Origin: a virus
Taxonomy: Duplodnaviria > Caudoviricetes
IMG/VR virus record: IMGVR_UViG_3300033463_000095
Coordinates: 8,017 to 72,016 of that record
Length of the DNA: 64,000 nt
Reading direction: 5' to 3' (one strand)
The notes under the pieces were generated by a model. It had not been told where the DNA came from. It saw nothing but the letters and a program-made list of their open reading frames with translations, and made no database searches. Shown piece by piece: positions 1 to 64,000 of this stretch. The translations under genes and the position numbers were made by a program. Positions within the stretch are counted from its first letter, which is position 1, and every line of letters starts with the position of its first letter.

Positions 1-1
1 T

Positions 2-1288
2 ATATTTAAAAATGGTTCTGTTATAGATATACTTGCGGCGACCGAAAGATCACGTGGTCAACGTCGTACTGGTGGTGTAATGGAAGAGTGTGTTTCTATT
101 GATCAAACTATGCTTAATGAAGTTATTATTCCAACTACCAACGTCGATAGACGACTTCCAGATGGAAGTAGAGATCCTAATGAGGTTGTTAACAAATCAC
201 AAGTTTATATTACTACAGCAGGTTGAAAAAATTCATTTGCTTTTTCTAAATTAATTGAACTTTTAATACGTTCAATACTAGATCCAAATGAAGTAATGAT
301 TATGGGTGGTACTTATGAAACACCTGTAAAAGAAGGATTATTAAATGAAGATTTTGTAGATGAATTAAAACTAAGTGGCACCTATCAAGAAGATTCATTT
401 GATAGAGAATATCGAAGTAAATGAAGTGGAGATGTAGAAAATGCTTTTTATTCATCTGAAGAATTTGATAAGCATAGAGTTTTACTTCAACCCGAATATG
501 AATTTAGTGGCAGAAGTTCAAAAAATGCATATTATGTTCTTGGAGTGGATGTTGGACGTACAGGATGTACTACTGAAGTGTGTGTTTTTAAAGTAACACC
601 TCAACCACAAGGAACTGCTTTAAAAAGTTTAGTTAATGTATATACTTATGATGCAGAACATTTTGAAAAACAAGCTATTAATATAAAGAAACTTTATTAT
701 AAATATAAAGCAAGAATAGTATCAATCGATGCTAATGGTCTTGGTGTGGGTCTTGTAGATTTTATGACTGTTGCACAGACAGATCCTGAATCTGGAGATG
801 TATTACCTGCATTTGGAGTTGAAGGCGGAACCGCAGAAGATGTTATGGATCAGTATAAAAAGGTTAAAGGTCCAGATGTTGAAGAAAATGCTTTATATTT
901 AATCAAAGCAAATGCACCTATTAACACAGAAGCATATGCTTATACAAGAAATCAAATGTCTAGTGGTAAGGTTAAATTTTTAATAGATGAACAACAAGCA
1001 AAAATAAAATTAATGGATACAAAAGTTGGTCAAAATATGAGTCCAGATAAAAGAAATGAATATTTACAACCTTTCCAATTAACTTCAATACTAAAGGCGC
1101 AAATGCTTAATTTAGTTGAAGAGACTCAAGGTGTTAATATTATTTTAAAACAATCTAATAAAGGAATTAAGAAAGATAAATTTTCTGCTTTTATCTATGG
1201 TTTATATTATATAAAACAAGAAGAAGATAAAAAGAAAAAAAGAAAAGGAAGAAGTATTGCTGATATGTTATTTTACAGTGGTAATTAA
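2..1288 (+). CDS. Terminase large subunit (5' partial, two in-frame TGA=Trp)
   Basis: Frame open from base 2: FKNGSVIDILAATERSRGQRRTGGVMEEC (Walker B region), TTAG[TGA]KNSF (motif III), EYRSK[TGA]SGD, then a nuclease domain GVDVGR...SIDANGLG...KDKFSAF. Ends TAA. Lies upstream of the portal. Confidence 0.93.
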
Positions 1289-1292
1289 TTTT

Positions 1293-1376: not shown

Positions 1377-1745
1377 ATGAGAGCTAGTAGAGGAGAAATA
1401 AAGATTGAAGAAGTTCTTCGAAATGCCGGAATGATTTTTGAACAAGAATATTCTTTTCCAGACTTGGTTAGCTCAAGTGGACACCCTTTAAGATTTGATT
1501 TTGCAGTATTTGACGATGAATATCATTTAATGTTTTTAATTGAATATCAAGGAATACAACATTATGAACCTAAAAGTAAATTTGGTGGTTATACTGGTTT
1601 GCGCAAGCAACAATTTCATGATATGCAAAAAAGAGAATATTGTCAAAAACATAATATTATTTTAATTGAAATACCTTATACTGTTGAGGGTAGAATTGAT
1701 TATGATTTTATTATGAATTTGTATTATTCAAAAGGCGGATACTAA
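1377..1745 (+). CDS. PD-(D/E)xK (Vsr/DUF559-like) endonuclease
   Basis: EQEYSF...LRFDFAV...LIEYQGIQHY pattern; AGGAGG RBS. Confidence 0.7.
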   Translation: MRASRGEIKIEEVLRNAGMIFEQEYSFPDLVSSSGHPLRFDFAVFDDEYHLMFLIEYQGIQHYEPKSKFGGYTGLRKQQFHDMQKREYCQKHNIILIEIPYTVEGRIDYDFIMNLYYSKGGY

Positions 1746-1779
1746 TTCATTAAAATAAAAGAAAAGCGAGGTGTCTATC

Positions 1780-3411
1780 TTGATTAATAGAAAAGAAGAA
1801 ATTAAGAAAAAAGGTTTTCATATATCTTTTAAAGATAGTACTCCAGAGGTTGAAGAATCTCAAAATAATTTTGTTCCAGTTGATTTTACAAAAATTAAAG
1901 TTGGAGCAAAAACATTAGAAGATGCTACTTTAGATTTAGGTGACTATAAAAAAATAGATAAAAGATTAGCAAGAAAAGAAGCAGTTTTAAAATCAATATA
2001 TGATAAAAACTGTACAGAAATGCGTGCTATATCTAATTTTTATTTCGAAACAAGTGGAATTTATTCAAGATTATGTAAATATATGGCTTATATGTATAGA
2101 TATGATTGAATGGTAACTCCTTATATAAATGAACAAAAAGATAAGGATAAAGAAAATACAAAAGCTAAAAAAGTTGAAGATAATGTTTTACAAGATTTTT
2201 ATAAGGTATTATTTTATTTAGATAATTCTGATTTAAAAAGATTATTTGGAAAAATTGCATTAAAAGTTGTTAGAGATGGATGCTTTTATGGTTATACTAT
2301 TCAAGGAAATAAAAGAATTGCAATTCAAGAACTTCCACTTCTTTATTGTCGTTCTAGATTTGAAGTAAACAATCGTCCAGTAGTAGAATTTAACATGAAA
2401 TATTTTGATATAATGTTTAAAGATGCTGGTCAAAAACAAAAGATATTAAAGGTTTTTGGTTCTGATTTTGAAAAAGGATATAAATTATATAAACAAGGTA
2501 AATTACCACCTTTATTTGTTGGAGATACTGAAGGATGATATGTATTAGACCCTGGTCGTGCTATAAAATTTAATGTAAATGGAGAAGATACTCCAATGTT
2601 TATGGCGGTAATACCTGCTATAATTGATTTAGATGAAGCTAAAGATTTGGACAAGAGAAAAATGGCTCAAGAGCTATTAAAAATTATTATTCAAAAGATG
2701 CCATTAGATAAAAATGGTGATTTAGTATTTGATGTTGATGAAGCTAGAGAATTACATAATAATGCAGTTAATATGTTAAGAAAAGCAATTGGTATTGATG
2801 TGTTAACTACATTTGCGGACGTCGATGTTGCCGATATGAGTGATAACCGCACAACTGCAGCTTCAGATGATCTCCAAAGAGTTGAGAGATCTGTATATAA
2901 TGAAGCAGGAGTTTCTCAAATGCAATTCAATACAGATGGTAATATTGCTCTTGAAAAATCAATTTTAAATGATGTTGCTTCATTCTATGATTTAATTTTA
3001 CAATTTCAAGCATTTATGAATGATATTATTGAAAAATATAATAAAAAACCTAAAAAATATTATTATAGAGCTCAAATCTTGACAACAACAATTTACAATT
3101 ATCAAGATATGGCTAAATTATATAAAGAACAAATGCAAGTTGGTTTCAGTAAAATGTTGCCGCAAATTGCACTTGGTCAAACTCAAAGTACAATATTAGC
3201 AAATGCTTACTTTGAAAATGAAATCTTAGATTTAGTTAATGTATTTATACCTCCTATGATGTCTAGTACAATGAATAGTGATGTATTAAATAGATTAAAT
3301 AATCAAAATAAACAAGAAAAAGAACAATCTGACAGTACAGGTGGTAGACCTGAAAAAGCAGATGATGAAAAGTCTGAAAAAACAATAATGAATGAAGAGA
3401 GTCAATCTTAA
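1780..3411 (+). CDS. Portal protein (TGA=Trp at 2107 and 2536)
   Basis: ORFs 1771-2109, 2110-2538 and 2596-3411 share a frame and are separated only by TGA (YRYD-W-MVTP, TEG-W-YVLD). Probable TTG start at 1780 after GAGGTG. Position between terminase and prohead protease. Confidence 0.85.
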
Positions 3412-3497: not shown

Positions 3498-4868
3498 ATG
3501 ATGCATCAATCAATTGCAACTATAGACTCTCCTGAGTTTATCAATCTACAACCTTTAGAGATTAACCCACTAATGAGCAGCTGTGAAATAAAAGTTTTAT
3601 ATCTAGGTGAAAATAGAAACCATAGTTATATAACTAAAGAAGTTGCGACAGAAATGGCAAAAACTCTACGTGGAGCGCCTATTGTTGGATATTACAAAGA
3701 TGAAAAAGAAGATTTTAGAGACCATGGTGAAAAATTAATTATTGATGATGAAGGTATTAAATTTGAGTGTTTAACTAAACCTTATGGTTTCGTAGCTCCA
3801 GATGCCAAAGTATGGTTTCAAAAATTTGAAGATACCGATGAGTTTGGTAACAAGATAAATAGAGAATATCTTATGACCACTGGGTATCTATGGACAGGTC
3901 AATTTGAAGAAGCTAAATTAGCTATTGATGAAGGTCGTCCTCAATCAATGGAGTTAGATGAGCAAACTTTAGATGGACATTGGTCAACAAATAATAATAC
4001 AGGTATGGACTTTTTCATAATAAATGATGCTATCTTTTCAAAATTATGCATTCTTGGAGAAGATGTTGAACCTTGCTTCGAAGGAGCTCGCATTACCGCA
4101 CCAGAAGTAAGTAAAACATTTACAAAAATGGATGATAATTTTAAAAGAACATTATTTACTATGATGCAAGATTTACAATCTGTATTAAAAGGAGGATACA
4201 AAATGGAACTAGAAGATCAAAATGTTGAAACTGAAGTTACTACTGCTATTGAAGAAGAAGTAACTAATGTAGAAGAAGAATCTGTTGAAACTCCTGAAAA
4301 TGAAACTGAAGCTCCTGAGGAAGAAGCTAAAGAAGAACAAGAAGAAGTTGCTGCAGAAGAAACTGATATTTCCATTGAAGCTACTCAAGAAGAAAAAGCA
4401 GAAAATGAAGAAGAATTAATTGACACTGAAGACACAGAAGAAAACGCTAGTGAAGAAAATGTAGAAGAAGATTATGCTTTAATAAAGAGTGAAAATGAAG
4501 AATTAAAAACAAAATTTGCGGAAATGGAAGCAAAATATCAAGAGTTAGTAGCATTTAAAGAAGCTGTAGATAATAAAGAAAAAGACGCTTTAATCGATAG
4601 TTTCTATATGTTATCTGACGAAGATAAAAAGGACGTTATTGAAAATAAATCAAACTATTCTCTAGATGAGATTGAAGCAAAATTATCAGTAATTTGTGTT
4701 AGAAAAAAGGTTAATTTTGATTTAGATAATTCATCAAAAAGTGAAGATAAAGTAGAAACAGAAGATAAAGAAGAAGTTGCTACAACTTATACTTTAGAAG
4801 AAACTGATTCTACTATTGTTCCTGAGTTTATACAAGCTTTAAGAAATAATAGAGATAGTAAAGAATAA
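3498..4868 (+). CDS. Prohead protease/scaffold protein
   Basis: N-terminal domain (GAPIVGYY, GYLWTGQ, SMEL, LCILGEDVEPCFEGA) plus a long acidic coiled-coil C-terminus. Lies between portal and capsid. Confidence 0.75.
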   Translation: MMHQSIATIDSPEFINLQPLEINPLMSSCEIKVLYLGENRNHSYITKEVATEMAKTLRGAPIVGYYKDEKEDFRDHGEKLIIDDEGIKFECLTKPYGFVAPDAKVWFQKFEDTDEFGNKINREYLMTTGYLWTGQFEEAKLAIDEGRPQSMELDEQTLDGHWSTNNNTGMDFFIINDAIFSKLCILGEDVEPCFEGARITAPEVSKTFTKMDDNFKRTLFTMMQDLQSVLKGGYKMELEDQNVETEVTTAIEEEVTNVEEESVETPENETEAPEEEAKEEQEEVAAEETDISIEATQEEKAENEEELIDTEDTEENASEENVEEDYALIKSENEELKTKFAEMEAKYQELVAFKEAVDNKEKDALIDSFYMLSDEDKKDVIENKSNYSLDEIEAKLSVICVRKKVNFDLDNSSKSEDKVETEDKEEVATTYTLEETDSTIVPEFIQALRNNRDSKE

Positions 4869-4892
4869 TTTTAATAAGGAGGATATAAAACC

Positions 4893-5423
4893 ATGAAAAT
4901 TACAAGAAAAGGTTTTGGTCAAGTTGAACCTAATCATTTATCTGCACAAAGAAATGGACAAATTTATGCTCAATTACCATTAGATAGTGAATACACAGGT
5001 GTTCTTGAAAATGGTCAATTCATGAAATATGATTATGAAAATGGTAAGGTTGGTTTAACTGGAGACATTGATGAATATTTCTTAGTTTATAACGAAGTTA
5101 AAGTTTATGATGAAAGAGATTCTTATAAAGATTTCGCTATGAAAAAAGAAAATTATGTTGGTGGAGAAATTTATCCAAGATTATTCAAAACTAATATTGG
5201 AGATATCTACACAACAAACTGTGTTGGTTTAGCTAACACTGATAAAAATGCTAGTGTTACTTATAATACTGAATTATCTCTTGGAGATAAATTAGAAGTA
5301 GATACTAGTACAGGATATTTAGTAAAAAATAATGGAAGTACTGCAAATATGATTTGGCAAGTTGTAAAAACTTATACTATGCCAGATGGACAAGATGCTG
5401 TAAAAATTCAAAGAATAAAATAG
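4893..5423 (+). CDS. Capsid decoration/minor head protein (putative)
   Basis: 176 aa, strong RBS, directly before the major capsid gene. Confidence 0.55.
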   Translation: MKITRKGFGQVEPNHLSAQRNGQIYAQLPLDSEYTGVLENGQFMKYDYENGKVGLTGDIDEYFLVYNEVKVYDERDSYKDFAMKKENYVGGEIYPRLFKTNIGDIYTTNCVGLANTDKNASVTYNTELSLGDKLEVDTSTGYLVKNNGSTANMIWQVVKTYTMPDGQDAVKIQRIK

Positions 5424-5443
5424 TTTAAGGAGGATTTATAATT

Positions 5444-6490
5444 ATGGAATTTAAAGATTTATCTAAATTAGCAAAACTTGCTAGTACTGTAAAACCTTCT
5501 TCTACTTATTCTTTCGGTGAAGAAACTTACACTGCTAAAGAAATTAATGAAACATTAAGAAAAGAATTAAACAGTATTGCTGGAGCTAATTATCATTTAT
5601 ATGAACAAAACAAACATACAATCTTCGCTTTAATCGAAGAAACAATCGACGATGTTCTTCCTCAAAGAGTTTTAGAAGAATATGGTCAATTTGCTGAAAT
5701 TAAACAAGTTGCTCAAGGTGACAAAGCTATTTTCAGACAAAAAGTAACTGCTGCTTCAAGAAGAAGAGCAAAACAATTCATTACAAAAGTTGGTTTAGCA
5801 GGCGTTTATGAAGTATTTAAATTAGATGGTAAAAGTTATGAATTACCAGTAACTGCATTCGGTGGCGCTGCTCAAATCTCTATCGAAGAATTCTTAGATG
5901 GTAGATTAGATTGGAATGAATTAGTAGAAATCGTTATGGAAGGTTTAGATGAAGCTATTTATTTAGAAATAGAAAAAGCTTTAATCGGAGCTGTTGATGA
6001 ATTAGGAGAATATAATAAATATGCAGGTATCGGATTTAATGAACAAGCTATGGATAGCTTAATTGCTGTAGCTGATAGTTATGGAAGATCTACTATTTAT
6101 TGTACATTCGAATTCGCAGCTACTATGATTCCTAGTGATAGTAGAATGTCTGATGCTATGAAAGATAGAATTTGGAACAATGGTCTTTTAGGAACTTATA
6201 AAGGACATAATGTTATCGTATTAAATCAATCATTAGTAGATGAAACTAATTCTAGAAAAGTTATTGATCCAGCTTATGCATGGATTATCCCAGCTGGAGC
6301 AAATGAAAAACCAGTTAAAATTGCTTTCGAAGGTCAAACATTAGTTGATGATAGAAAGAATGATGATTGGTCTAAAGAAATTCAAGTTTACAAAAAACTT
6401 GGAGTTGGTGCTTTAATTACTAATAATATCTGTGTTTATAGAAATGCAGCATTAACAAAAGATGTAGTAATCCCAGCTAGTTCAATTTAA
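5444..6490 (+). CDS. Major capsid protein
   Basis: 348 aa with strongly biased codons and a strong RBS. Followed by a terminator. Typical position in the head module. Confidence 0.85.
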   Translation: MEFKDLSKLAKLASTVKPSSTYSFGEETYTAKEINETLRKELNSIAGANYHLYEQNKHTIFALIEETIDDVLPQRVLEEYGQFAEIKQVAQGDKAIFRQKVTAASRRRAKQFITKVGLAGVYEVFKLDGKSYELPVTAFGGAAQISIEEFLDGRLDWNELVEIVMEGLDEAIYLEIEKALIGAVDELGEYNKYAGIGFNEQAMDSLIAVADSYGRSTIYCTFEFAATMIPSDSRMSDAMKDRIWNNGLLGTYKGHNVIVLNQSLVDETNSRKVIDPAYAWIIPAGANEKPVKIAFEGQTLVDDRKNDDWSKEIQVYKKLGVGALITNNICVYRNAALTKDVVIPASSI

Positions 6491-6506
6491 TTTTAAAAAT
6501 ATAACT

Positions 6507-6560
6507 TGGGAAGGTTAAAAATTTCTTATAATAGAGATATTTTTACCTTCCCATTTTTTT
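6507..6560 (+). terminator. Intrinsic terminator after the major capsid gene
   Basis: TGGGAAGGT...ACCTTCCCA long hairpin followed by a T run. Confidence 0.75.
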
Positions 6561-6586
6561 ATTAGGAGAGAAAAGGAGTTTTATAT

Positions 6587-7177
6587 ATGAGAGAAATAGA
6601 CAATAAAGAAATTATTAAAGTTACTAACAGATTTAATGGTTCTGTTGGTTATACAATTAGAGATTTAAATAATCTATCTAGAGTGTTTAGTCCAAATGAA
6701 ACAAAAGAAATTACAATGGAAGAGTTAAGAAAATTATCTTGGGAAACAGGCGGCCGCACTTTAATTAACGATTATTTAATTATTCAAGATGAAGACGCTT
6801 TAAAAGAAATTTTAGGTAGTCCTGAACCTGAATATTATTATACAGAAGAAGATGTAAAAGATTTATTATTAAATAAATCATTAGATGCTTTAAAAGATTG
6901 TTTAGATTTTGCCCCAAGAGGAACAATTGATTTAGTTAAAAAATTAGCAGTTGAATTACCTTTAAATGATGTGGCTAAAAGACAAGCTATTTTAGAAATG
7001 ACTGGATTTAATGTTACTTCTGCAATTGAAATCAATGAAGCAACAAAAGAAGAGCAACCTGTAAATAATACAGGATTTAGAAGAATAGATAGTAAGCCTG
7101 AAAAAGAACCAGAAAAACCTACTGGAAGAAGAGTAGCTGTTGTTAACGATAATAAATATAAAGTTGTTAATAAATAA
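6587..7177 (+). CDS. Hypothetical virion-associated protein
   Basis: Intact 196-aa ORF with RBS in the head-neck region. Confidence 0.7.
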   Translation: MREIDNKEIIKVTNRFNGSVGYTIRDLNNLSRVFSPNETKEITMEELRKLSWETGGRTLINDYLIIQDEDALKEILGSPEPEYYYTEEDVKDLLLNKSLDALKDCLDFAPRGTIDLVKKLAVELPLNDVAKRQAILEMTGFNVTSAIEINEATKEEQPVNNTGFRRIDSKPEKEPEKPTGRRVAVVNDNKYKVVNK

Positions 7178-7195
7178 AAAATAGGAGGTGTGAAT

Positions 7196-7732
7196 ATGGA
7201 AAATACAACACCTTTTTCTGTTGTTTATGATAGTTTTTTATCTAAAATCACTGAAGATATGTATATGGAATTAAATGAAAAAGATACATTTAACTTATTA
7301 GAAGAATTACTTATGTCTGCTATACATAAATTTGAATTTCCTAGAATTAATATTTTTGATTATGTAGCTAAAAAAGATTTAGATAAAAAAGCTGCTAAAA
7401 AACTTGATATAGGATATTTTAATTGTGAATTAAATGATGAAGAAGTTAATATTTTAGCTACTTATATGGTAGTAGAATGATTAGGACAACAACTTGCAAC
7501 AGTTGAAAATACTAGAATGAAATATAGCGGAAGTGATTTTAAATTTACTTCACAAGCAAATCATATGAGTAAAATACTATCATTAAAGAAAGATTATGAA
7601 AGAGAAGGTTTTCATCTTCAAAGATTATATAAAAGAAGATTAAAAGATGAAGATGGAATTATGCGCTCAACTTTTGGAAGTATAATGGAAGAATCTCCTG
7701 AGGGAAGAGAGGTTCAAACAATATGGAAATAA
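7196..7732 (+). CDS. Head-tail connector (putative), TGA=Trp at 7478
   Basis: ORFs 7190-7480 and 7517-7732 are in frame through YMVVE-W-LGQQ. ATG at 7196 after GGAGG. Confidence 0.65.
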
Positions 7733-8058
7733 GTACTGGAGCAAATATAAAAAATGAAGCTATTATTGAAAATCTTAAAAAATTAACTAATCAAATATTT
7801 AAATTATTACCTGATTGAGAAGAGGCTCTAGATTGACAAACCCCATTAGGAACTATTATAGAAGAATTATCTGGAATGGATGAATTGTTAACAAATTATC
7901 ATGAAAAATTATTTTCTTTATTATGCAAACTAAAAGGTCTTTATGATTATAAAGAAAATAATGAAAGAGATGATTTTTCTGATTATCGAAGAACTATATT
8001 TGAATGTCTAAATATTTTATCTAGTATCAAAAATGAGGTTGAACAATGTCAGGATTAG
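7723..8058 (+). CDS. Hypothetical neck protein (two TGA=Trp)
   Basis: MEISTG...KLLPD-W-EEALD-W-QTPL continues in frame into ORF 7876-8058. Ends TAG. Confidence 0.7.
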
Positions 8059-9014
8059 ATAATTTAGGGCTTAGATTACAATATACTGGCGGCAACCGTC
8101 AAATAGATAGAATGAATGAAGATAAATTAAAAAGTTTGAAAAAAGCTCTTCTATATTCTTATCAAAGTGCAACTGCAATTTTAGCAGATGGTAGAGAATT
8201 TAGATGTTTAATTAATCCAGATAAGTTGAAAAATGTTTATGATGATAAAATTATTTCAATTCCTTTTAAAGATATCTGTTTAAATAAAGATAGAATTGGT
8301 AAAACAACAAATGGAATTGAAGATATAGGTATGAAGCCAGGTGATATATTTACATGGAAAGAAAATGAAACAGATTGATTAGTTTTTTTACAAAGATTTG
8401 AAGAAACTGCATATTTTAGGGCGGAAATCCGTAGATGTAAATATACAGTTACAATAGATGACACTGAATACAAGTGTTATGCGGCAAGACCTTCACTTAA
8501 TGAAATTGATTGAAGAGAACAAAAAGAGAAAGCTTGAAATGATATAGATTATACATTACAAATGTATATAACAAAAGATGAAAAAACTGAAGCATTTTTT
8601 CATAGGTTCGCAATTATAAAAGTAAATGGTCAACCTTGAGAGGTACAAAGTGTAGATAGTATGAGTTCAGATGGTATCATTCTTGTATATTTAAAAGAAT
8701 GATATAATAATAGTATCCAAGAGGCTAAAGATGCAGAAGATGCGAAAATCGCACCTGAGGATGATATAGACGCAAATGATCCTGTAATAATCGGCCCTGC
8801 CGCAGTTTATCCATATGATAAAAAATCTTATACTATTGAAAATGCTGAAGGTGGACAATGGGTTATAGGTAGTCAAAAAGCAAAAATAATAGACCAAGAT
8901 GAAACAATGGTTAAGATTGAAATAGTTTCAGGTCGTAGTGGTAATTTTGAGTTAAAATATGTAAGAGATGGTGAAGACGATATCATTTTGCCTATTGAAA
9001 TAAAATCATTATAG
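8046..9014 (+). CDS. Head closure/adaptor protein (putative, several TGA=Trp)
   Basis: Frame continues past TGA 8376 (TD-W-LVFL) and further TGAs (GQP-W-EVQ, LKE-W-YNN) to TAG at 9012-9014. C-terminal Ig-like segment. Confidence 0.65.
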
Positions 9015-9033
9015 GAGTTAAAGGAGAGTAAAT

Positions 9034-9621
9034 ATGAGAAGAGATGTTATTAGCACAGTTCCATTAAAATCATCTTTCTTATCTTTTGAAAAAGATGTAG
9101 AAACTATATTAAAAGCATTGTTTGTTCAAAGCCAACCTCACAGTGATGGATTAAAAAGATTGCTAGTATTAAATACAAGAGACTGTTTAGATAGTACAAC
9201 AAGTCAAGTATATAAAAACATCCTTGATAATATAACATTAGCAACATTAATTCAAGATGGATATATTAGATTAAATCCTAAAATGAGAATGCCTGAGCAT
9301 GAAGAGGTCAAGTCTTATATAATTATTTCTATGGATAATTTTGTTCCTACTACAAATCCTCAATATAGAGATTGTACTTTAACTTTTGATATTATTTGTC
9401 ATATTGATTATTGAGATATTGGAAATTATAGACAAAGACCAATTAAAATTGCAGGATATTTAGATGGCTTATTAAATAATGCTAAATTAAGTGGAATTGG
9501 TGAATTACAATTTTTAGGAATGAATGAGCTTATTCTTAATGAAGATTTAGCTGGTTATACTCTTATGTATAGAGCTACCCATGGAAATGATGATCGTTTA
9601 CCTCCATCAGATTTAAATTAG
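9034..9621 (+). CDS. Tail terminator/completion protein (putative)
   Basis: Reads through TGA 9412 (CHIDY-W-DIGNYRQRP) to TAG 9619-9621. Position before the tail tube gene. Confidence 0.6.
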
Positions 9622-10353
9622 ATGGATAATGAGTTGTTATATCTATCAGGTAATGATATTCCTTTTACAGAAGCTCAAGTTACTATACATCAACCTACAA
9701 TAAAAGAGATCGCATATATTGGGGAGGAAGCATTCTTTATTGGATGTGAATTAATTAATTTTTCTAAAAATAATTTAACAGAAGAGGACAAATTAAATTT
9801 AGAAGATAAGACAGATTTTGATATATTAATAGCAATACTAAGAGAGCGTAATGCGGTAATGCAAAGAAATAGGAATTGCGTAGAAATGGTTCTAGCATTG
9901 GTTTTTCCTGAATATTCTTTTGATTTTACAAACAAAGAAATTTTATTAAAGAAAAATGATGAAGCTTATTCTATAAATAATAAGAATTTTGAACAATTCA
10001 AAAGTATATTTAATAAAATGTTTGATTATAAAAAGAGTATAGAAGATAGTTATAATCCTGCGGGAGATATGGCGAAAAGAATTGCTAATAAATTGAAAGA
10101 ACGTCATCAAAGATTAGCACAAGAAAAACATGAACAAAAGAAAATTGATGTTTTTGGTAGATACATTTCTATTTTAACTGTAGGAGAGCGTAAAGATATG
10201 AATTCTTTAATGCAATATACAGTATATCAATTAAATGATGAGTTTACTCGTTATGAATTGAAAAATAGTTATGATATTCATTTAAAAGCTCAATTAGCTG
10301 GAGCCAAGGATTTAAAGGAAGCTGAAGACTGAATGAAAGATATTCATTCATAG
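9622..10353 (+). CDS. Hypothetical tail-region protein
   Basis: ORF 9622-10332 extends through TGA (AED-W-MKDIHS) to TAG 10351-10353. Confidence 0.7.
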
Positions 10354-10385
10354 TTTATTAAAATTTTTTAAGGAGGATTATAGAT

Positions 10386-11312: not shown

Positions 11313-11319
11313 TATTAAT

Positions 11320-11351
11320 AAAAGAGAGGGCGGCAACGGCCTCTCTTTTTT
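11320..11351 (+). terminator. Intrinsic terminator after the tail tube gene
   Basis: AAGAGAGG...CCTCTCTT stem followed by a T run; the loop contains GCGGCAA. Confidence 0.8.
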
Positions 11352-11372
11352 GTTTATTAGGAGTTGATAATT

Positions 11373-51765: not shown

Positions 51766-51777
51766 ATTGCCTCCTAG

Positions 51778-52038: not shown

Positions 52039-52053
52039 TATTAAAATCCTCCT

Positions 52054-53332: not shown

Positions 53333-53333
53333 T

Positions 53334-53786
53334 TTAAGACTCCTTATATAATTTACATATACCTTTAAAATGGTCTAATTCATGTTGTATAATATTTGAC
53401 ATGCGGCCGCCTTCAGCTATTTCTTTAGTAACACCATTTTCATCTGTGTATGTACACCATACTTTTTGAGCACGTTCTATTTCTTCATATTTTCCAGGGA
53501 CACTTAAACATCCTTCTAAATATTTTTGACATCCGCGGCTACGGGTTATTACAGGATTAATCATAACTACAGTTTGATTAGCCCACGAACAAACACATAC
53601 ACACACAGGCGTACCAATTTGTATTGCAGATAATCCTTTTCCAGCAGGGGCTGCCGCCAATGTATCTTTTAAATCTTGTATTATTTGTTTTATTTCTTCT
53701 GTTGCTATATCTTCAACAGGTTGACTGATAGAAGATAATACTTTTCTATCTTCTTCATTATTATAATTTAAAATTGGTTTAATCAT
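53334..53786 (-). CDS. def: Peptide deformylase
   Basis: All three PDF motifs are present: GKGLSAIQIG, EGCLS, QHELDH. Confidence 0.92.
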   Translation of the reverse strand: MIKPILNYNNEEDRKVLSSISQPVEDIATEEIKQIIQDLKDTLAAAPAGKGLSAIQIGTPVCVCVCSWANQTVVMINPVITRSRGCQKYLEGCLSVPGKYEEIERAQKVWCTYTDENGVTKEIAEGGRMSNIIQHELDHFKGICKLYKES

Positions 53787-53816
53787 TTATATACATTCCT
53801 TTCATTATATATAAAT

Positions 53817-53845
53817 ATTATACCATTATTTTTAAAATAAGTCAA
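53817..53845 (-). promoter_or_regulatory. sigmaA-type promoter with extended -10, upstream of def
   Basis: Minus strand TTGACT-17-TATAAT with TG at -15/-14. Confidence 0.75.
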
Positions 53846-54254
53846 TTCTATCTGTTATATAAGATTTTTTTATTAATTTTTTACCATTTCTATCAGTTTC
53901 TTTAGCGTAATACTCTTCAAAAATAAGCAATATTTCTCTAATTCTTTTTAGGTTATCTATATCAATTTTTTTATTCTGATTCTCTTCTATCATATATTTT
54001 GTAATTCTTAAAAATAATTCTCTATTTATTCTTTCAATTAAATGAAGATAATCATGCGAGGTATCTTGTTTTAAAATAGCTCCATTTCATAAGAGATATC
54101 CAGTTCCAAGCTTTTCTTTTTTACATTCTCTTTTAGGAATTATCAAATGATGAAAACTTAACTCTTCTGGTTTTTTAAAAGTATATCCCATAAAATCATA
54201 ACCTAAATTTTTTATGTCATAGAGTTTTATCATTTCTTTTGTTATTTCTCTCAT
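53832..54254 (-). CDS. HNH-like His-motif protein (putative)
   Basis: YDFMGY...LSFHHLI...YLL-W-NGAIL...SHDYLH; 140 aa. Missing from the track. Confidence 0.55.
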
Positions 54255-54259
54255 AATGT

Positions 54260-55195
54260 TTATCTCCTATGAGATAATTTTTTATTTTCAAAAGTTTCTA
54301 GTTCTGGAGTTATTTTATATACATGACCTTTATCATCAAAATCTACATCAACTCATCAACATGATTTATCATTAGCTAAACCCATGCTGCGGCAATATGG
54401 TGTTTGGTCTTCTAAACAGCTAGTTTGAAAACAATGTGTTTTATCTTGTTTCATAAAAAAACTTTGATGAATATGACCTGTCTGTAAAATATCAGGTTTT
54501 TCATTAGATGGAATTGAGTCTAAATACTTTTGTAGTTTATATGACTTAGCATATGCACTTCCACCACTTCCATGAAATAATCTTATTTTTAATTTTCCTA
54601 TTTTTAAATCTGTTACATCAGGACCTAAATAAACGATATCATCTCTTTCTTTAGCTATTGATTTTAAAATTTCGCTACCTGCAGACTTATACCATCAATC
54701 ATCATGATTTCCTTGAATGGCATAGGTTTTTCCACTAAATTTAGGATATTTATCTATACAATATTGAACTTGTCCTTCATAAGAAGGTTCGCGCAATTCA
54801 TATACTTGCTCTGGTCTATTACTTCTGCCATCTGTAAAATCTCCAGAATGAAGTATATGCTTAATTCCTTTATCTTCTGCTTTTGAATATAAATATTTTA
54901 ATATGTCTACTCTATCATATTTACTTCCTAAATGAGTATCGCTAATCAATAATAATTTTAAATGTTCTAAATTATTAGGTAATTCATATATATCATTATT
55001 TTTTTGTGGACTTTTTCTAATAATAATTTCTTCGTTTGTAAAATCAATATTATATCCTTGTTGATTCATTAGAGTAATTAATCCTATAACTTCATAATCT
55101 TTTAATTCTAATTCCTCACATATTTTTAAAAATGATTTTTTCTTTTTAGCCATAGAATAAATTTTATCACATAATTCTTTTCTTTTTTCTTCCAT
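54260..55195 (-). CDS. Calcineurin-like metallophosphoesterase with an N-terminal HTH-like region
   Basis: ISDTHLG, HSGDFTDG, QGNHD, LFHG, TGHIH. The last two motifs lie beyond TGA 54695. Confidence 0.85.
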
Positions 55196-55268: not shown

Positions 55269-55428
55269 ATTTTATATTTCTACCTAATAAGCCTGTATAA
55301 AGAAAAGTAGCTCCAAACCATTGTAAAGATGTTGCTATATCTCCTTTAGTTATTATATTAACTATTAAACTTCCAAAAGCACCTGTAATCATAAGCGCTG
55401 GGAAAAATACTTTTAAAAAATTAGTCAT
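55267..55428 (-). CDS. Small two-helix membrane protein (53 aa)
   Basis: MTNFLKVFFPALMITGAFGSLIVNII...WFGATFLYTGLL; start overlaps the nrdG stop. Confidence 0.55.
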   Translation of the reverse strand: MTNFLKVFFPALMITGAFGSLIVNIITKGDIATSLQWFGATFLYTGLLGRNIK

Positions 55429-55918
55429 TCTCTACCTCTCCTGTTTTCATATTATATACATTTTGATTACGACTTCCGCGCCATTTTAGTGTAATATCAC
55501 GCTCTTCAAGAATAAAAGGACCTTCAATTAAATAATCTATATTTTTTAATATATAATCTGTATTATTTTCTTTTTGTAAATTTTCAAGAGTATATCCTGT
55601 TCAAATAACAATTTTAATATCAGGATATTTATCTTTTGCTTTGTATATAAGTTGTTTACAAAATTCTCTTTTATTATCAGTATCTAATGGTTCTCCACCA
55701 AGAATACTTAAATTCCTTTGTATCCCATTTGCGGCAATGGCATTTATAATAGTCTGAATTAATTCATCCTCATACCAAACATCTCCGCCTTCAAAATCTC
55801 ATGCTTCTGGATTATGACATCCTTTACAGTGAAAATGACAACCTTGAAGGAATAAACTAACGCTCACTCCTTCTCCATTGACGAAATCATTGCCATTAAT
55901 ACCTGCGACCCTAATCAT
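55421..55918 (-). CDS. nrdG: Anaerobic ribonucleotide reductase activase (radical SAM)
   Basis: DFVNGEG...FLQGCHFHCKGCHNPEA-W, ILGGEP, VI-W-TGY, WRGSRNQ; two TGA=Trp. Confidence 0.92.
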
Positions 55919-58900
55919 TCCAACTCTCCAATTTTTTAGAATGTTTGTATCTTTGTTCAGTCTCTTGTTGTTTTCCTTTATTAAAAGCAGTTTTATAATC
56001 ACCAGTTAAATATCCTGTAACGCGTCTAAGTTGTTGAATATGCGTACTTCCGCATATTGGACACTTATTATTAAATTCATCAGTATAACCGCAATCTAAG
56101 CAAGTGTCATTAGGTACATTAATTGCAAAATAAGGAATATCTTTATCCATAGCATAATTAACTATTTTTTCAAGAGCATCTAAATTATTTTTAACTCCAC
56201 CATCTAATTCAACATAAGTAATACATCCTGCATTACTATATCCAGTTAATTGACTTTCTATATCTATTTTATCAAATGGACTCATTTCTTTTCATACAGG
56301 AACATGAATACTATTTGTAAAATAATCTCTATCACTTACATTAGGAATAATTCCATATGCTTTTTTAAATTTCTTCATTGAAGTGTAACACATTGTTTCA
56401 GCTGGAGTATAATAAACACCAATATTTAAATGTAAATCTTTTTTAAATTGTGCGCATCTATCTTTAAATAATTGCTCAATTCTTTTAGCGAGCTCCATAC
56501 CTTCAGGTGTAGTATGGTCTGTACCAATTAATATTTGAAGCGTTTCCGCCAAACCAATTTGACCTATAACAAGAGTTCCATGTTTCATGGCAGATTCAAC
56601 TGTTTTTCCATCATAGCCTAACATTATGTTATTTTCATACATAAATTTAGCACTTTCAGGTGATTGACTTATAATTCAATTATATCTTTCTACCAACATA
56701 TCTTTTGCTTCATGAATTTTAGTATCTAATAACTTTATAAATGTTTCAACTACTTGTTCTCTATTATTTTTTCCGGCTGTTAATAATCCAGTCCCAGGAA
56801 TTAATTCAAGTGGTCCTGGGTGTTTTTCAACTGCTTTCATAGCAAGAGTAGGCATTACAATAGTAACAGGACATATATTTCCGCGGCCATCTTTAGTTTG
56901 AGGATTTGTTCCAGGCTCAGCATTAATATCGCTTCCATTATAAGTGCGACATCCCATCGTACTAACGTAGGTCTTAGGATCGTTTATATCGAATCCCGCA
57001 TTAACAGACCAATCTACATTAACATAGTTAGGATATAACCTTTGAGCTGTTGATTTAAGTGCTAATTTAAATAAATCATAGTTAGGGTCTCCAGGTTTAC
57101 GGTTAATGCCTTTCATACATTGGAATATTCCACATGGGAAGATTGGAGTTTTCCTAACTTTGCCAACACCTTCAATAGAACCTTCTAATAATGCCTTTGT
57201 AACCATTCTACCTTCGGGTAAAGTACAAGTTCCATAATTAATAGAAGTAAAAGGTAACTGATTTCCGCTTCTGCTTTGTAATGTATTTCCAAATATTCTA
57301 TAAAGTTCGCTACACTTTATACGTTCTCTTATGAACTGCTATATATTACTATATAGAGTAGACTATATCTTCATCCTTTTTAAGGATGCTCGCCATTTCA
57401 GCTACCAATAGCTTGTAGCTTACGTCTTTCGACTAGTCGTTAGGCTTTTATATATCATCATTTTCATATTTAAAATGAAAACCACCAGTAGTTTTTATCT
57501 TTCCTTTTAAAACTTTACAAATATTTGTTGCATATAAATTTAATTGTCTTGCACATTCTTGTATAGATTCATATTTAATTCCTGTTTCTATACAAATAAT
57601 AGCTTTTTTATCTTTCTTATTAGCAATAATTTTTTGTCTAGTTTCTTCAGAACAAGGATGAGTTATTGACTTAGGTTTTCTTAATTTAGCTTTATGCTCA
57701 TCTGTTAATTTTCTTCCTTTTTGAGCTAAACTAATTTTTCTTTTCTTTTCTTCTGAACATTTCTTTCCTAATCCATTTTTATTACCCTTTAAAGCTTTAG
57801 CAATTTTATCTCTTACTTCTTGGGGTAACTGAGGTGAAGTTCCGCCCTCCATAATATTATATCCAAAATTTCTATTTTGAGTATTATATTTTTTAATTAA
57901 ATTTTTTTCCATTTGACAAGCTTGCTCTTGAGTCAATTGTTTTGCCAATATTAAATGTTCAAAATTATTTCATCCATATTTTTGAATAGCTTGATAAAAA
58001 TGTGGACTAGATTTATAATTATTTCCATTTCTACCCCATCTATTTTCTGGATTTTGTTTTGTAATTCCAACATATTTTTTATTATTGATTTTATTTATAT
58101 GTATATAAACATAATATATGTTTTCTATATTAACACCTCCTTAAAAGATGTTAATGATGATATAATTTAGCACGGTAAGTTGTCCTATAGGGAGTTCCTC
58201 CGTTTAAGCGAGATTCATAATAATATTACTATTATTATGCCCAAATTTCTAGGTTGTGATACATTCCTTGAACAGCTTGCATCAATTCTTTTTCTGTCAT
58301 ATCCATTGCATATTTGTATGCTTTTGAATATTTTTTATATCTTTCATCTTCAATAGACCAATCTAATTGAGGTAAATCATCATCAAATAAATCTAATTCT
58401 TTTCCTTCAATATATTTTAATCCATCTTTAAAATGTTTACAAAAACTCATACGAACATATGGAACCATAGTCCAGTCTAAATGACTTGCACTAACTCCAC
58501 CAAATTGTTGTAAAGATTGTAATTGGAATAATACTGCAACTAATTGAAATGCTGTATTAATAGAACGAGCTGGTCTTACATCTGTTTGTCTTGTATTAAA
58601 ACCTTCTGCTAATAATTTATCAAAAGGAACAGTTAAACAGTTATGCATACCAACTGCATATGCATCTAAATCATGAATATATATTTCATTATTTAAATGA
58701 TTTTCTCTTGCCATTGGTGATACAATATAATTAAGAGCATAATCTTTCATAAGCTCGCTTCTTGCTTCACCCATGCGGCCGCCAAATGAATATTCATCAA
58801 CATTAGCATTTTGATTTTGAACATCACTCGCTTCAATTTTTTCTTTAATATTTTGCATTAATTTACTATTAGCATTTCTTATTTTAGTTCTTTGCTCTCT

Positions 58901-59161
58901 ATAAAGAATATATTCTTTAGCCACATCTTTTCTTTTGGTTGACATTAAACCTTTTTCAACTAAATCTTGAATTTCTTCTATTTCAGGAGTTTCATTTACA
59001 TCTAAATAATACCCCTCAATATAATCTGCAATATTTTCTGCTTTTTCATTTGCATAATCTGTAATTTCGCCATCTACATTTTTAAATGCTGCTAAAATAG
59101 CATTTTTAATTTTAGAAGAATCAAATGGCACAATTCTTCCATCACGTTTTTTTACGTTCAT
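55911..59161 (-). CDS. nrdD: Class III anaerobic ribonucleotide reductase, spliced (exons 59161-58251 and 57288-55911)
   Basis: ATP cone; HDLD, QFGG; spliced junction MYHNL|NTLQSRSGNQLPFTS; MGCRT, GNIC, YFTNSIHVPV-W, C-terminal RRVTGY glycyl-radical loop. Confidence 0.93.
57289..58250 (-). ncRNA. Group I intron in nrdD (962 nt)
   Basis: 5' exon ends in U (CACAACCT); intron ends in G (ATATTTGG); removal restores the frame. R-like AACGACTA and S-like AAGATATAGTCT elements are present. Confidence 0.88.
57448..58128 (-). CDS. Intron-encoded GIY-YIG homing endonuclease with NUMOD3-like repeats (ATA start)
   Basis: YYVYIHINKINNKKYVGIT...AIQKYG-W-NNFEH...E...GYN; GGAGGTG RBS 6 nt before ATA 58128; TGA=Trp. 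Confidence 0.85.
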
Positions 59162-59265: not shown

Positions 59266-62200
59266 TTAATTATCTAGCCCTTCTCTTTCATGAGTTATTT
59301 TTATATCTCCATTATTAAAAATTTCTTCTATTTTATATAATTGATGAAAACTAGTTTTACTATAAGTTTTTGCTACAAAAGTATCATCTCTGCGGAAACC
59401 AGCAACTAATAATTTTACACCACGAGTAAACCATCCTTTTTCTACAACATGTTTTACATTATCTTCACCTAATTCACTAATTTGTCTATTAAACATAGCA
59501 TAATATTCTTTTGTGAACTTAACATTTACTACTTCTGTTGGAGTTAATAATGTTACGGATGAACGCGTATCATTTTTACCAATTACAGTTCCAGCAATTC
59601 TATATATTTTATAAATAGGAATATCTCTACCATTTCTTTTAAAGAAGCAATCTATTGTTGGGTTAGATGTTAATTCATTAAAATCCACAATTCCATATTT
59701 ATTATTATTTACATGTGCCAATTCATGTTCATGATAATAGAAACATAATGCTTCCATTTCATATGAACTAATATTACCTTGAGCATATTTATCCCAACAC
59801 TCTTTAAATAATATTTTATTAAAATTATTAAGGATTTCCGCTTGATTATTTTTTATCCAATCTCTTGCTTTATCCATAACATCTTGATATATTTTATCCC
59901 ATCTTGTTTGAAGAATACAAGTCAATCCATTGATAACTTCTAACTGGTCTAAATCAAAATGTTTATTATAAAATTCTTCACAAACATTATCAAACACATA
60001 ATATTTGCCAACTTTTTTATTTGCTTTTAAATATTTTGTAAATAAAAATGTATGTTTTTGTAAATCTAATTCTTTAGGAATTAAATCGTGTTGAATTAAA
60101 CCATTAAAGTTTTGTAAAGTTATTCTTTTTTTTGCTTCACATACTTTAGATATATAATATATCATAACTACTTTACGTGCGGAAATGCCTAATTCATCTG
60201 CCCATGATTGCTCTAATTTATCAAATGCTCCCGCTTTAATAAGGCTAAACATTGCACTTTTATTTAATGGACATTTATTCATAAAATCAACTATTCCCGC
60301 ATAAGGTCTATGTTCTATTATTTGTTCTATTGTTGCTCCATTAATATTACTTAATGCTTTCATACCAAATAATATTTCATTATTTTCTTTATCAGGTTTA
60401 AAACTATAACTAGATTTATTAATATCTACTAAACTAACTTTAATACCTCTTAAAGTAATATCACCAATAGCCTTTGCCACTTTACCATAATCAGTCCCAC
60501 GTTCTTTGCGTTCAACATTTCCTTCTTCATCTTCTTCAAATTCATCATCTTCTTCAAGACTTCCACTATTAACAACTAAACATGCAGTATTTCAATAAAT
60601 TGGATTCCAATTAGTTGCAATATACATTGTTTGAAAACCAATAAATGAATATGCTAACGCATGAATTGTAGAGAATGAATACCCCATTTGAGGACCTACA
60701 CCACAAGCCCATACATATTTACCAAGATTTTTACTTGCCGCCTGATCTAATATCTGTTGATGAAGTGCAGGTATTTTACTCATTTGCTTTTTACCTACAA
60801 TTTTACGTGCAGCATTTGCTTCTGCAAGAGTAAAATTACATATATCTTTATCCATTAACATTTTCATTAATTGCTCTTGACTTGGCGGAACTCCATAAGA
60901 ACTTTTAAAATATGGTTCTAATGTTTTTTGTTCTGCTTGAGTTAATCCATATTCACGCATTTCTTTATACCATAATGATATATCATTTTTAAATCTAATA
61001 TATTTTTCCATAGGAGTTTCTTGACCTTTTTCTGCAGTCATAAGTCTCATTAATCCATTTGCATCTGACATTTCTAAAATTGAGGTTGGACGAATTTTCT
61101 TTGCGGCTTGTGAACCTACTTCACTATCAAATTGAAAAATATTTAATACACTATTTTCTTGAAGTGTTTTCCATATTTCTTGATTATCAATAGGTAATAC
61201 ATTAGGATGAAAATATTTATTATAAACTTCTCTTAATGTTAATGTGTTATCTATTTCATTATATTCTTGTAATAATCTAATTGCTTCGCACAATTTATCT
61301 TGAACTTCTGTTACTAAAAAGTCATATTTTGTCATACCGCATGCTTCTGCCATATGTAAATCATATGCTGTGATAATTTCACCTTTTGGGGTTCTCATAA
61401 ATGTACCAAATTCATATGGATCTTCATCGAATAATATTACTCCTGAGGCGTGGCTACTACGTTTATTAACTAATCCTTCAATTCCTCGCATAATATCTAA
61501 TAAACCTGGATAGGTATTAACTTCATTGATAAACATTTTTATAGGTTTTCTACCTTTATCTTCATTTCCATTGACAACATCATCAAGAGGCCATAGAAAT
61601 CCACGTTCACTTGGAATTAATGATGATAAATATTGTGCTGTATCAACATCTATTCCATCTGGATAATCTTCACTACGATAACCGCGGCAAGCGGTTAAGA
61701 TTGTTGATCGAGTTCCTTCTGTACCAAATGTTGCTATTAATGTACAACCTAAATTTTTTCTTGATAAATCATCTATATCTTTATTAAAATTTTGACCACG
61801 TTCTTTTTTTATTTCATTTAATATCTTAGGACGTTTACTCGGACATAGATCTAGATCGATATCCTTTAATGGACTATATCTTTCACAATAGATTACTGAG
61901 AGTATTTTACTTCATCTATTGCTAGAATGCGCTACGGAATAGTGCTTATCTCTACTCCTCTATATTTTAGTCTCTACACTTATATAATTTTTTCAATAAT
62001 ATCCTTTATAAAGAGTTCCTTCTTTGATAGCTCTATCTAATTGAGTATGACCTTTTAAACCAAGAAAAGATAAAACTGCAGTTTTTGCATTGAATATTCT
62101 TATTAAATTATATTTTTCATCATACATTGCAATTTTTTTACCATTAATAGCTTTATCTCCCTTTTTGCCATACATTCCATTTTTTTCTCCAGCTACTTTC

Positions 62201-64000
62201 CCAATGCTATTAATTGACATCTTTAATTTAGATTCTTGGGTATGATGTTTTCCATACATTCCATTCTTTTCTCCTGATACTGCCAGAGACATTTTTTCAC
62301 GATATTCTTTTGTTTTCATGTAAGAAACATCTCTATTTTTTCTTATTTTTTCTTTTGTTTCTTCTGACAAGTGAATTCCATATCTAGGATTTTTTTCTCC
62401 AGCATATTTTTCACTTATTTTTTTAGAATAGGCTATTTTTTGTTCTTCTGTTCAACCTGCGATAGTATTTCCACCATCTCCGCCTTCATGAATATTATAA
62501 AAATCTTCTCTATTAACAGCATTATATTTTTTTATAAACTCTTTTTCTTTTATACTATTTTCTTTTTCATCTTTTGAAATATATAAAATTTCTTTTTTAA
62601 AATTTTCTTTTCCATATTTTTTTATGGCTCTTAATAATAATGTGCCACTTCCCAAATATGAATCATTAAGTTCTCCCTTATGTTTTCCTATATATTTCTT
62701 TCCATTTATTAAATTGGTTGTCATATAAATATAATTCATATTATTTATCTCCTTTCAATATTATATGAAAAATATAACATTGACATGGATCGACTTTGAC
62801 CAAGATTTTTAATTATTTTTAATTATATAAGCACGGTATCACATGCCTTACCATGTATGGTAGCTTGCTCTCTTAGTCAGCTGATTCGTGCATAAAGCCT
62901 TATTTTGCTGATACCGTTAGCCGCTTTTAACGACACCCTTTAGCAAGGTTCACATTCTTTTTTTACAACTAGGCAATATCAACTATAGACTACCTAGTTC
63001 GACTCTCTCTTTGTTAAGGTACCTTCAGAACGGTAGCTCCCATTTAATCGGATCAAGTTGAGTTATTCCTAACAAATAATGATTTAATCCAGAACAACTT
63101 GAACCACGTCCTGCGCCAACGATACTTCCGCACTCCCAAAATAAATCTACATAATGTTGAAGTGTTACTGGATAAGCAAACATATTTGTTCCCAGTTTTT
63201 CACTAATTGTTTTTTTAATATCTGCCTCTTCTTCAAGTCTATCTAAATATTGATGATTTAATTTTCCAATTTCTTCTAATTTATTAGAGCATTCATTTAC
63301 CCAATATCTTTCTATTTTATCATCTGATTCAAACATACTAGATAATATAGGCCATGTATCTCGCGCAAATGCACCTTTATCAATTTTAGGATATTCCTTT
63401 ACTTCTACATGAGGAATAGTTTGTGCGTGTGCTAAACTAAATTTTTCTATTTTATTATATATTTCATAACTATTGCCAAACATTTCATTTATAAAATCAT
63501 CACTAAATTCAGATGCGTATAAATTTTCTTTAATTTCTTCATTATCTTGAAGATATGCAAATTCATAGAATTCATCTACTTCACGTTCTCCAAACTTACT
63601 ATTTAAATATGCTTTATGAACATACCTATCTTCTTTTTTAAGATAGTGAGCATCTGAACCTATAACCATTTTTAATCCAAATGCTTTTGCAATAGCAGGA
63701 AATCTTTTATTAACTAAAACTTGGTCACGACTGCTACCTGGCGCACATTCTATATAAAAATTACCTTCACCAAATACTTGTTTGCACCATAACAAGAAAT
63801 TTACTATATTATTATGTGCGGCTGCCGCTCCTTCTGTATCACCAGTTTTTTCTGCTTTAATTAAATTTAAAGTATTAACACTTAATTCTCCACCTAAGCA
63901 AGCTGTAGTTCCAATTAAACTATTAGGATATTTTTTTAATATTTCTTCTAAATCACTCTTTAAAGTAGGAACTCTTTCAAGACCTCTATCCCAATAACTA
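59266..64000 (-). CDS. dnaE: DNA polymerase III alpha subunit (family C), 5' partial, spliced (exons >64000-62992 and 61863-59266)
   Basis: PHP-domain TACLGGE and SDAHY; GAGRGS; F-W-RYLNKERVELG|DIDLDL; RSSHASG; KYDFL; HALAY; PIY-W-NTACL; C-terminal OB fold. Confidence 0.93.
61960..62739 (-). CDS. Intron-encoded GIY-YIG homing endonuclease with NUMOD3 repeats
   Basis: YIYMTTNLINGKKYIG...YLGSG...KKYGKENF...FYNI; repeated GEKNGMYGK; two TGA=Trp; TAG 61960 lies inside the intron core. Confidence 0.88.
62760..62801 (-). promoter_or_regulatory. Phage-specific promoter motif GGTCAAA-N29-TATAAT inside the dnaE intron
   Basis: Minus strand GGTCAAA 62801-62795, 29 nt, TATAAT 62765-62760, then AAAGGAG RBS and ATG 62739. 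Confidence 0.7.

Follow-up and report, generated by a model that had tools for sequence, protein, structure and literature searches.

Gene content and layout of the window

The window analysed here is a stretch of 64,000 nucleotides, bases 8017-72016 of the 72,016-bp linear IMG/VR virus record IMGVR_UViG_3300033463_000095, and our subject is the codon TGA, which in the genes of this tailed phage is a sense codon meaning tryptophan. The sequence has a GC content of 28.6%, and CheckV rates the record 49% complete; a search of the 72-kb record for terminal repeats or circularity found none. We found the same sequence again in bovine-gut metagenomes from several studies, one bovine-gut sample containing 84% of the sequence words sampled. 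Relatives, with terminases 58-85% identical, come from animal guts and have records of up to ~127 kb, and those records of 98-127 kb are rated 66-84% complete. We think it likely that the window covers about half of the genome of a tailed cattle-gut phage, AT-rich and large (roughly 130-150 kb), with an SPbeta-type terminase and a DnaE-type polymerase, which reads TGA as tryptophan by a mechanism, proposed below, that involves a phage tRNA in a standard-code host.

Up to ~46.6 kb, the plus strand carries the packaging, head and tail genes and the lysis module. From 46.6 kb onwards, the minus strand encodes a RuvC-like resolvase, glycosyltransferases, nucleotide metabolism, NrdG, NrdD and a DnaE-type polymerase whose gene continues past the end of the window. 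The features are as follows, with window positions, strand and in-frame TGA and TGG codons (aa, amino acids; E, E-value of the family match):

1..1288 (+): terminase large subunit of the SPbeta YonF type, with its start 466 nt ahead of the window; 2 in-frame TGA, of which one is at 224 (TTAGW); PHROG terminase families
1377..1745 (+): HNH homing endonuclease, lying between terminase and portal; without Trp codons; phrog_9084, phrog_559, E 3e-28
1771..3411 (+): portal protein; 2 TGA, 0 TGG; code 11 shows the last 271 aa only; phrog_2739, E 5e-73
3498..7177 (+): head-module genes of 456, 176, 348 and 196 aa; 0 TGA, 9 TGG; phrog_3313, phrog_4088
7190..12821 (+): neck, tail and other virion structural genes; most with 1-5 TGA
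10386-11312 (+): virion structural protein, phrog_2729; TGA-free
13513..21378 (+): tape measure protein, 2,621 aa; 17 TGA, 7 TGG; PF10145 PhageMin_Tail, E 6e-29; in many pieces under code 11
21456..29828 (+): giant tail-fibre or host-specificity protein, 2,790 aa; 27 TGA, 14 TGG; phrog_38044, phrog_6468
29850..32249 (+): tail or baseplate protein, 799 aa; 12 TGA, one of them 4 codons before the end inside the Gp10_C domain; PF21939, PF05895, PF00041, phrog_372
32681..35299 (+): 872-aa protein with no family match; 0 TGA, 6 TGG; neighbours recoded
37885..39218 (+): lysis genes, namely an M23-peptidase endolysin-like gene (2 TGA, 7 TGG; PF01551, phrog_9066) and a holin (0 TGA, 2 TGG; phrog_881)
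46609..55195 (-): accessory and nucleotide-metabolism module; 30 TGA, 13 TGG
55421..56002 (-): NrdG activase; TGA at HNPEA-W and VI-W-TGY; PF13353, E 2.5e-40
55911..59161 (-): nrdD, split into two coding pieces, the first (~59161-58250) with the ATP-cone and N-terminal part, the second at ~57287-55911; PF03477, PF13597, PF22083
59266..64000 (-): DnaE-type DNA polymerase in two coding pieces, piece 1 from 64000 (off the window) to ~62932 and piece 2 at ~61869-59266; PF02811, PF07733, PF17657, PF14579

By its position, the 348-aa gene of the head module probably encodes the major capsid protein. The module at 46609..55195 comprises the RuvC-like resolvase, GT1 and GT2 glycosyltransferases, thymidine kinase, dUTPase, a DUF5662 protein, a metallophosphoesterase and a phage-encoded peptide deformylase (53334-53786, minus strand; PF01327, E 5e-35; 0 TGA, 2 TGG).

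TGA is a sense codon

Translated with the usual code of bacteria (code 11), the window holds 34 open reading frames (ORFs) of at least 150 aa, the longest of 872 aa. Code 4, in which TGA is sense, fuses these ORFs into frames of 2,621, 2,790, 830, 799, 756 and 681 aa. We measured coding coverage greedily over the whole 72-kb record from ORFs of at least 100 aa, with TAG read as sense for a control. Coverage is 55% with code 11, 88% with TGA as sense and 57% with TAG as sense; the 71% obtained with TAA as sense is inflated by the AT-richness of the sequence. The sharp rise from 55% to 88% is the outcome of the comparison between codes 4 and 11 that an earlier, sequence-only reading of this stretch had put forward as a check. 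The TGA-sense set consists of 72 ORFs that occupy 93% of the record and contain 157 in-frame TGA and 123 TGG codons (141 and 109 within the window). In-frame TGA is found in 40 of the 72 ORFs, in the structural and replication modules alike, and the claim that the whole window uses TGA as tryptophan holds for both groups of genes.

The individual sites named in the sequence-only reading are real. Internal repeats of the form G-x-Y/F-L-W-T carry TGA at 25566, 25953, 26331 and 27087 and TGG at 27282, exactly as it had given them, and a further repeat copy in the tail-fibre protein, YLWV, has TGA at 29154. TGA also stands at the W of all six motifs it had cited: TTAGW in the terminase (224), PSSWR in RuvC (46794), HVPVW in NrdD (56294), PIYWNTACL in DnaE (60594), and HNPEAW and VIWTGY in NrdG. 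Two of its statements need amending. That all gene ends are TAA or TAG agrees with our counts (57 TAA and 15 TAG), but it is true by construction once TGA is read through. Likewise, TGA does occur at the cited motifs of NrdD and DnaE, but the fragments of these two genes are not separated by TGA only, as each gene is also split by ~1 kb with a homing-endonuclease gene. Eleven ORFs carry TGA within their last 25 codons, and in three of them (the Gp10_C-domain tail protein, the RuvC-like resolvase and a 243-aa virion protein) a homologue alignment or domain match reaches the end of the ORF. The thymidine kinase gene (50442-51035, minus strand) ends in TGA TAA, which is ambiguous between a C-terminal Trp and a TGA stop with a back-up TAA.

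Under code 11 the majority of large genes appear disrupted, as they would if the in-frame TGAs were damage in a decaying, pseudogenised element or the product of sequencing or assembly error. We give this explanation practically no weight. The frames are interrupted by TGA alone, never by TAA or TAG, and the interruptions sit at tryptophan positions where TGA or TGG is common to many independent contigs of other samples. Moreover, the same sequence recurs in bovine-gut runs of several studies. TGA is thus a sense codon, and the record and its relatives need translation table 4; table 11 breaks the portal, the tape measure, the tail fibre, the polymerase and ~40 other genes.

TGA is read as tryptophan

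By coding density, the terminase relatives fall into three code classes: TGA-recoded, TAG-recoded and standard-code. For the alignments, TGA was masked as X in the query proteins, so that tryptophan could not drive the result, and the queries were run with tblastn against 33 related loci and later against three whole relatives. TGA codons of the window align with TGG in 28 of 39 comparisons with standard-code relatives and in 210 of 330 comparisons with TAG-recoded relatives. Tyr and Phe are the next commonest partners, and Gly appears once in the 39 + 330 comparisons. As a control, the window's own TGG codons align with TGG in 12 of 18 and 147 of 201 comparisons with the same two classes, and the pattern is the same over whole relative genomes. 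Counted per site, one or more relatives cover 80 of the 157 TGA sites, and at 57 of these 80 W or TGA is the majority partner (TGG control, 50 of 65). Within the TGA-recoded relatives TGA and TGG interchange about equally, and they interchange in the internal repeats as well.

At the six motif positions the relatives have TGG or TGA, and sometimes Tyr. The terminase codon at 224, for example, corresponds to TGG 19 times, TGA 14 times and TAT 4 times, and position 305 of NrdD is Gly in two of five relatives. The sequence-only reading had described these as conserved tryptophans. This is borne out in NrdG, in which the first W aligns with the W of CHNRDTW in PflA, a protein of solved structure, and it is overstated at the NrdD site, where one solved structure has Tyr and the T4 enzyme has Glu. 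Across the comparisons, homologues place Trp at the TGA positions, and not Gly, selenocysteine or a C-terminus.

Could TGA be read as some other residue (selenocysteine, Cys or, as in code 25, Gly), or be passed by low-level natural readthrough by the host tRNA-Trp(CCA) without a dedicated suppressor? We judge both very improbable. ARAGORN labels the UCA tRNA of relatives, described below, as "SeC", and this tRNA has a long extra arm; its acceptor features, however, are those of tRNA-Trp, and it matches the general tRNA model rather than that of tRNA-Sec. Trp dominates at TGA at the rate observed for TGG codons, and the single Gly excludes code 25. As for readthrough, Bacillus subtilis shows weak natural UGA readthrough in which Trp is inserted, but if each site were read through at a few percent only, proteins with 17 and 27 TGA codons could not be made. 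On the masked alignments we rejected code 25, selenocysteine and gene decay.

Uneven use of TGA and the code of the host

TGA accounts for 56% of the Trp codons, whereas the five other two-fold codon pairs ending in A or G are 90% A-ending (binomial p = 1e-19), with values of 88-95% in every module. Use is uneven between genes too. The high-copy head genes (3498-7177 and 10386-11312) contain 0 TGA and 10 TGG (Fisher p = 0.0002 versus the rest), which fits avoidance of inefficient suppression. A leftward early block (record positions 591-5103) has 4 TGA and 11 TGG (27% TGA), with 3 of the 4 TGA in a doubtful ORF, and the three genes just past the divergent point have 14 TGA and 3 TGG (82%). The Nrd/DnaE block is at 28% TGA (p = 0.0014), and the replication region (10-35 kb) of G005, a 127-kb relative, contains 6 TGA versus 89 TGG. 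Early genes suit the standard code and recoding is found in later genes, although the separation is graded and not absolute. The 872-aa protein, TGA-free among recoded neighbours, might be a recent acquisition.

These counts bear on the code of the host. If the host itself used genetic code 4, as for example Mycoplasmatales-like Bacilli do, the phage would simply share the code of its host and there would be no switch. The presence of TGA in 40 of 72 ORFs of both structural and replication modules would agree with this, as would the lack of a suppressor tRNA on the record and the very low GC content, which resembles that of code-4 Mollicutes. Still, we regard a code-4 host as unlikely. Mutational bias gives 90% A-ending codons, yet TGA makes up only 56% of the Trp codons; no high-copy head gene has it, the early block and DnaE have little of it, and in the G005 replication region it is far outnumbered by TGG. 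Among relatives, those with 58-79% terminase identity are TAG-recoded or standard-code, and we know of no bacterial host in which TAG is reassigned. The sole association with a metagenome-assembled genome (MAG) that we found is with a Bacilli genome that has release factor 2 (RF2): a TGA-recoded relative (68% terminase identity) was binned with this 1.1-Mb MAG, in which prfA and prfB are both present and the ORFs do not lengthen when TGA is read as sense. In addition, for all of their clades but the code-25 phages, Borges et al. (bioRxiv 10.1101/2021.08.26.457843) predict hosts among Firmicutes or Bacteroidetes that use the standard code. In summary, the uneven and under-used TGA, the TAG or standard code of relatives and the MAG with prfA and prfB point to a standard-code host; whichever bacterium it is, it probably uses the standard code.

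A proposed mechanism of decoding

We propose a mechanism in three steps. First, the phage would infect a low-GC Bacillota host with the standard code. Second, a phage tRNA array would supply an opal suppressor derived from tRNA-Trp, with the anticodon UCA, which would be charged by the tryptophanyl-tRNA synthetase (TrpRS) of the host and compete with host RF2 at TGA. Third, decoding of TGA would be conditional and imperfect, such that TGG would be kept by genes that have to work ahead of suppressor build-up or whose products are very abundant, and the tape measure, tail fibre, portal and accessory genes would use TGA freely. Most likely, the phage carries the tRNA with the anticodon UCA, tRNA(UCA), in the missing half of its genome, and timing or efficiency of suppression is the most likely explanation of the TGA pattern.

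Several observations weigh against this proposal or the host assigned in it. No tRNA was found on the 72-kb record with ARAGORN in bacterial and code-4 modes or with Rfam at the gathering score or, for the tRNA model, at E up to 1. Searches for the RF-1 domain and class-Ib synthetases found no release-factor or TrpRS gene on the record or on the relatives G001-G005, all of these records being fragments. An intact tRNA(UCA) is present in two of the five TGA-recoded relatives searched (G002 and G005), all five records being incomplete. The link to the Bacilli MAG comes from metagenomic binning, which is composition-based and does not show infection. Furthermore, TGA also occurs in DnaE, NrdD, NrdG and RuvC on the replication side, which blurs the separation of early and late genes in the window phage and sets it apart from the Agate clade of gut phages compared below, for which the replication genes are described as standard-code (bioRxiv 10.1101/2021.08.26.457843). 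Nor are the lysis genes enriched in TGA, a second difference from Agate: the endolysin-like gene has 2 TGA and 7 TGG and the holin 0 and 2, so the idea that recoding times lysis is unsupported for the window phage.

The record is collinear with G005, running along it from 94.7 kb down to 31.6 kb. The 25 tRNAs of G005 are located outside the collinear span on either side, at 0.4-2.1 kb and 121-126 kb. Because the record is half a genome and the arrays of G005 lie outside this span, its lack of tRNA(UCA), release factor 1 and TrpRS is uninformative. We also compared contigs from the probable source sample and three other bovine runs with the 97-nt tRNA(UCA) of a relative. A few cover nearly all of it at a likeness of at least 85%, most matches are generic tRNA halves, and nothing ties them to the window phage, so this comparison gives no support either way. 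A match to the RF-1 domain was seen in a 402-kb record of the TAG class.

A five-arm tRNA(UCA) in relatives

The tRNA(UCA) gene is carried by 15 IMG/VR contigs, G002, G005 and 13 others, all relatives and none of them the window (L045:918-1014 (-), L049:1371-1467 (-) and the 13 loci of the series L094-L108). In several of these 15 loci coding density is uninformative on the code class, because tRNA arrays are poor in ORFs. On all 15 the gene has A1-U72 and G73, and in G002 and G005 it is 97 nt long with an encoded CCA end, these being features of tRNA-Trp; the Rfam general tRNA model matches it and the tRNA-Sec model does not. The arm with UCA is in the canonical place. Between this anticodon arm and the T arm, in the place of the variable arm, lies an extra conserved stem-loop whose loop, CUCCAAA, is the anticodon loop of tRNA-Trp(CCA), and the gene usually adjoins a normal tRNA-Trp(CCA). 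A five-helix fold is 98.4% paired across the sequences, with double changes in 12 pairs and four pair types in each of the two outer pairs of the extra arm. Judged by the alignment, this covariation supports all five helices, with the qualification that the inner three pairs of the extra arm and its loop were fixed by the search pattern.

Host TrpRS normally reads the CCA anticodon. The retained CCA arm could conceivably be functional, for instance by keeping recognition by host TrpRS so that the UCA suppressor is still charged with Trp, but we offer this as a speculative idea that is rather unlikely to be right. A limited check of full-text literature found no description of a tRNA with two anticodon-like arms, which is not proof of novelty.

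G003 has an altered version of the gene (L043:398-467, minus strand). The 3' two-thirds of the five-arm tRNA(UCA) are identical, but unrelated sequence stands in place of the 5' acceptor strand, of the D arm and of the UCA arm's 5' side; this is a disrupted or rearranged copy.

The surroundings of the gene hold further small RNAs. A transfer-messenger RNA (Rfam RF00023, 74-77 bits against a cut-off of 47 bits) lies inside the tRNA array near the suppressor at L045:277-700 (-) and L049:714-1153 (-), and also in L096, L098 and L106. Directly 3' of tRNA(UCA) is a tRNA-like gene that scores weakly (~40 bits), is assigned the anticodon AUU by ARAGORN and has G at position 33 (L045:844-914 (-), L049:1297-1367 (-) and L043:321-391 (-)). 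Two contigs combine tRNA(UCA) and tRNA(CUA) in one array (L103:138-214 (-) and L105:3898-3974 (+)), and hence suppressors for two stop codons in one phage.

Mobile insertions in nrdD and dnaE

The insertion in nrdD spans 57288-58249 (~960 nt) and contains an HNH/NUMOD homing endonuclease gene at 57948-57448 (-); mapped onto the NrdD pieces of G005, its junction falls at residue 317/318. The insertion in dnaE, at 61870-62931 (~1.06 kb), contains a GIY-YIG/NUMOD homing endonuclease gene at 62739-61960 (-) (PF01541; 2 TGA, 0 TGG). In G005 the dnaE orthologue is one uninterrupted frame of 1,323 codons, and nrdD is interrupted at a different codon by a different endonuclease. With orthologues either uninterrupted or interrupted elsewhere, both sequences are real insertions. 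Rfam gave no match to a group I intron core around either endonuclease, whether at the gathering score or with E allowed up to 1.

Comparison with known systems

The terminase is 78.5% identical to that of a human-faecal contig. The nearest cultured phages are SPbeta-like phages and related large siphoviruses of Bacillota, at 33-45% terminase identity, and at 45% for the best of them these are too far for their hosts to be transferred to the window phage. Enterococcus phage H1, Geobacillus virus E3 and phAss-1 are at 43-45%. H1, E3 and Lactococcus phage 949 share with the window phage a YonF-type terminase (33-44% identity), a DnaE-type polymerase, ribonucleotide reductase genes with mobile insertions and a very long tape measure protein, but they use the standard code. 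The 136-kb human-gut phage phAss-1, of the proposed Phassvirus group, recodes TAG, has suppressor tRNAs and is predicted to infect Bacillota (Babkin et al. 2023, PMC10607447). It resembles the window phage as a large gut phage with stop-codon recoding and a terminase of the same broad lineage (44.6% identity). It differs in recoding TAG instead of TGA and in GC content and habitat, and the identity is far too low for the same genus.

The closest description is that of the Agate clade by Borges et al. (bioRxiv 10.1101/2021.08.26.457843; published 2022). Agate genomes are ~127 kb, with members of codes 4, 11 and 15 at an average nucleotide identity above 80%; the samples are from cattle, pig and tortoise, suppressor tRNAs were detected in only 35% of the code-4 genomes, and an early gene bears a TGA-biased intron endonuclease (bioRxiv 10.1101/2021.08.26.457843). 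The window phage and its relatives are alike in reading TGA as Trp, in relatives of ~127 kb, in having TGA-recoded, TAG-recoded and standard-code members in one clade, in coming from cattle and other animal guts, and in having tRNA(UCA) in some genomes only. They thus agree with Agate in size (~127-154 kb), in animal-gut habitat and in close relatives with different codes. Further likenesses are a TGA-bearing homing endonuclease in an early (replication) gene, here the GIY-YIG endonuclease in dnaE, and a TGA that is commoner in structural than in replication genes. The sequence-only reading had attributed the window to the TGA-recoded gut phages of Bacillota of Borges et al., and the mix of code classes among relatives and the described properties of the clade are in keeping with that attribution. 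Compared by described properties only, the window phage is a probable member of the Agate clade.

The code itself is that of Mycoplasmatales and Entomoplasmatales, in which UGA is likewise Trp and is read by a tRNA-Trp with a UCA anticodon. There, however, the whole cell is on code 4 and RF2 has been lost, whereas the window phage under-uses TGA and avoids it in certain gene classes, the pattern to be expected if RF2 stays active during infection.

Recoding of TGA to Trp has already been described for such phages, to which the window adds one more rumen member. As the phenomenon is established, the finding opens no new question; it is useful for annotation and modestly informative on codon-level selection. 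With it, the window phage joins a clade whose genetic code flips between close relatives. The gene-by-gene gradient of TGA avoidance, across head genes, early genes and the polymerase, supports suppression that competes with host termination. The five-arm tRNA(UCA) of the relatives is the one lead that could open a new question: if the retained CCA arm is indeed functional, this tRNA would be a visible duplication intermediate in the evolution of a new code by phages.

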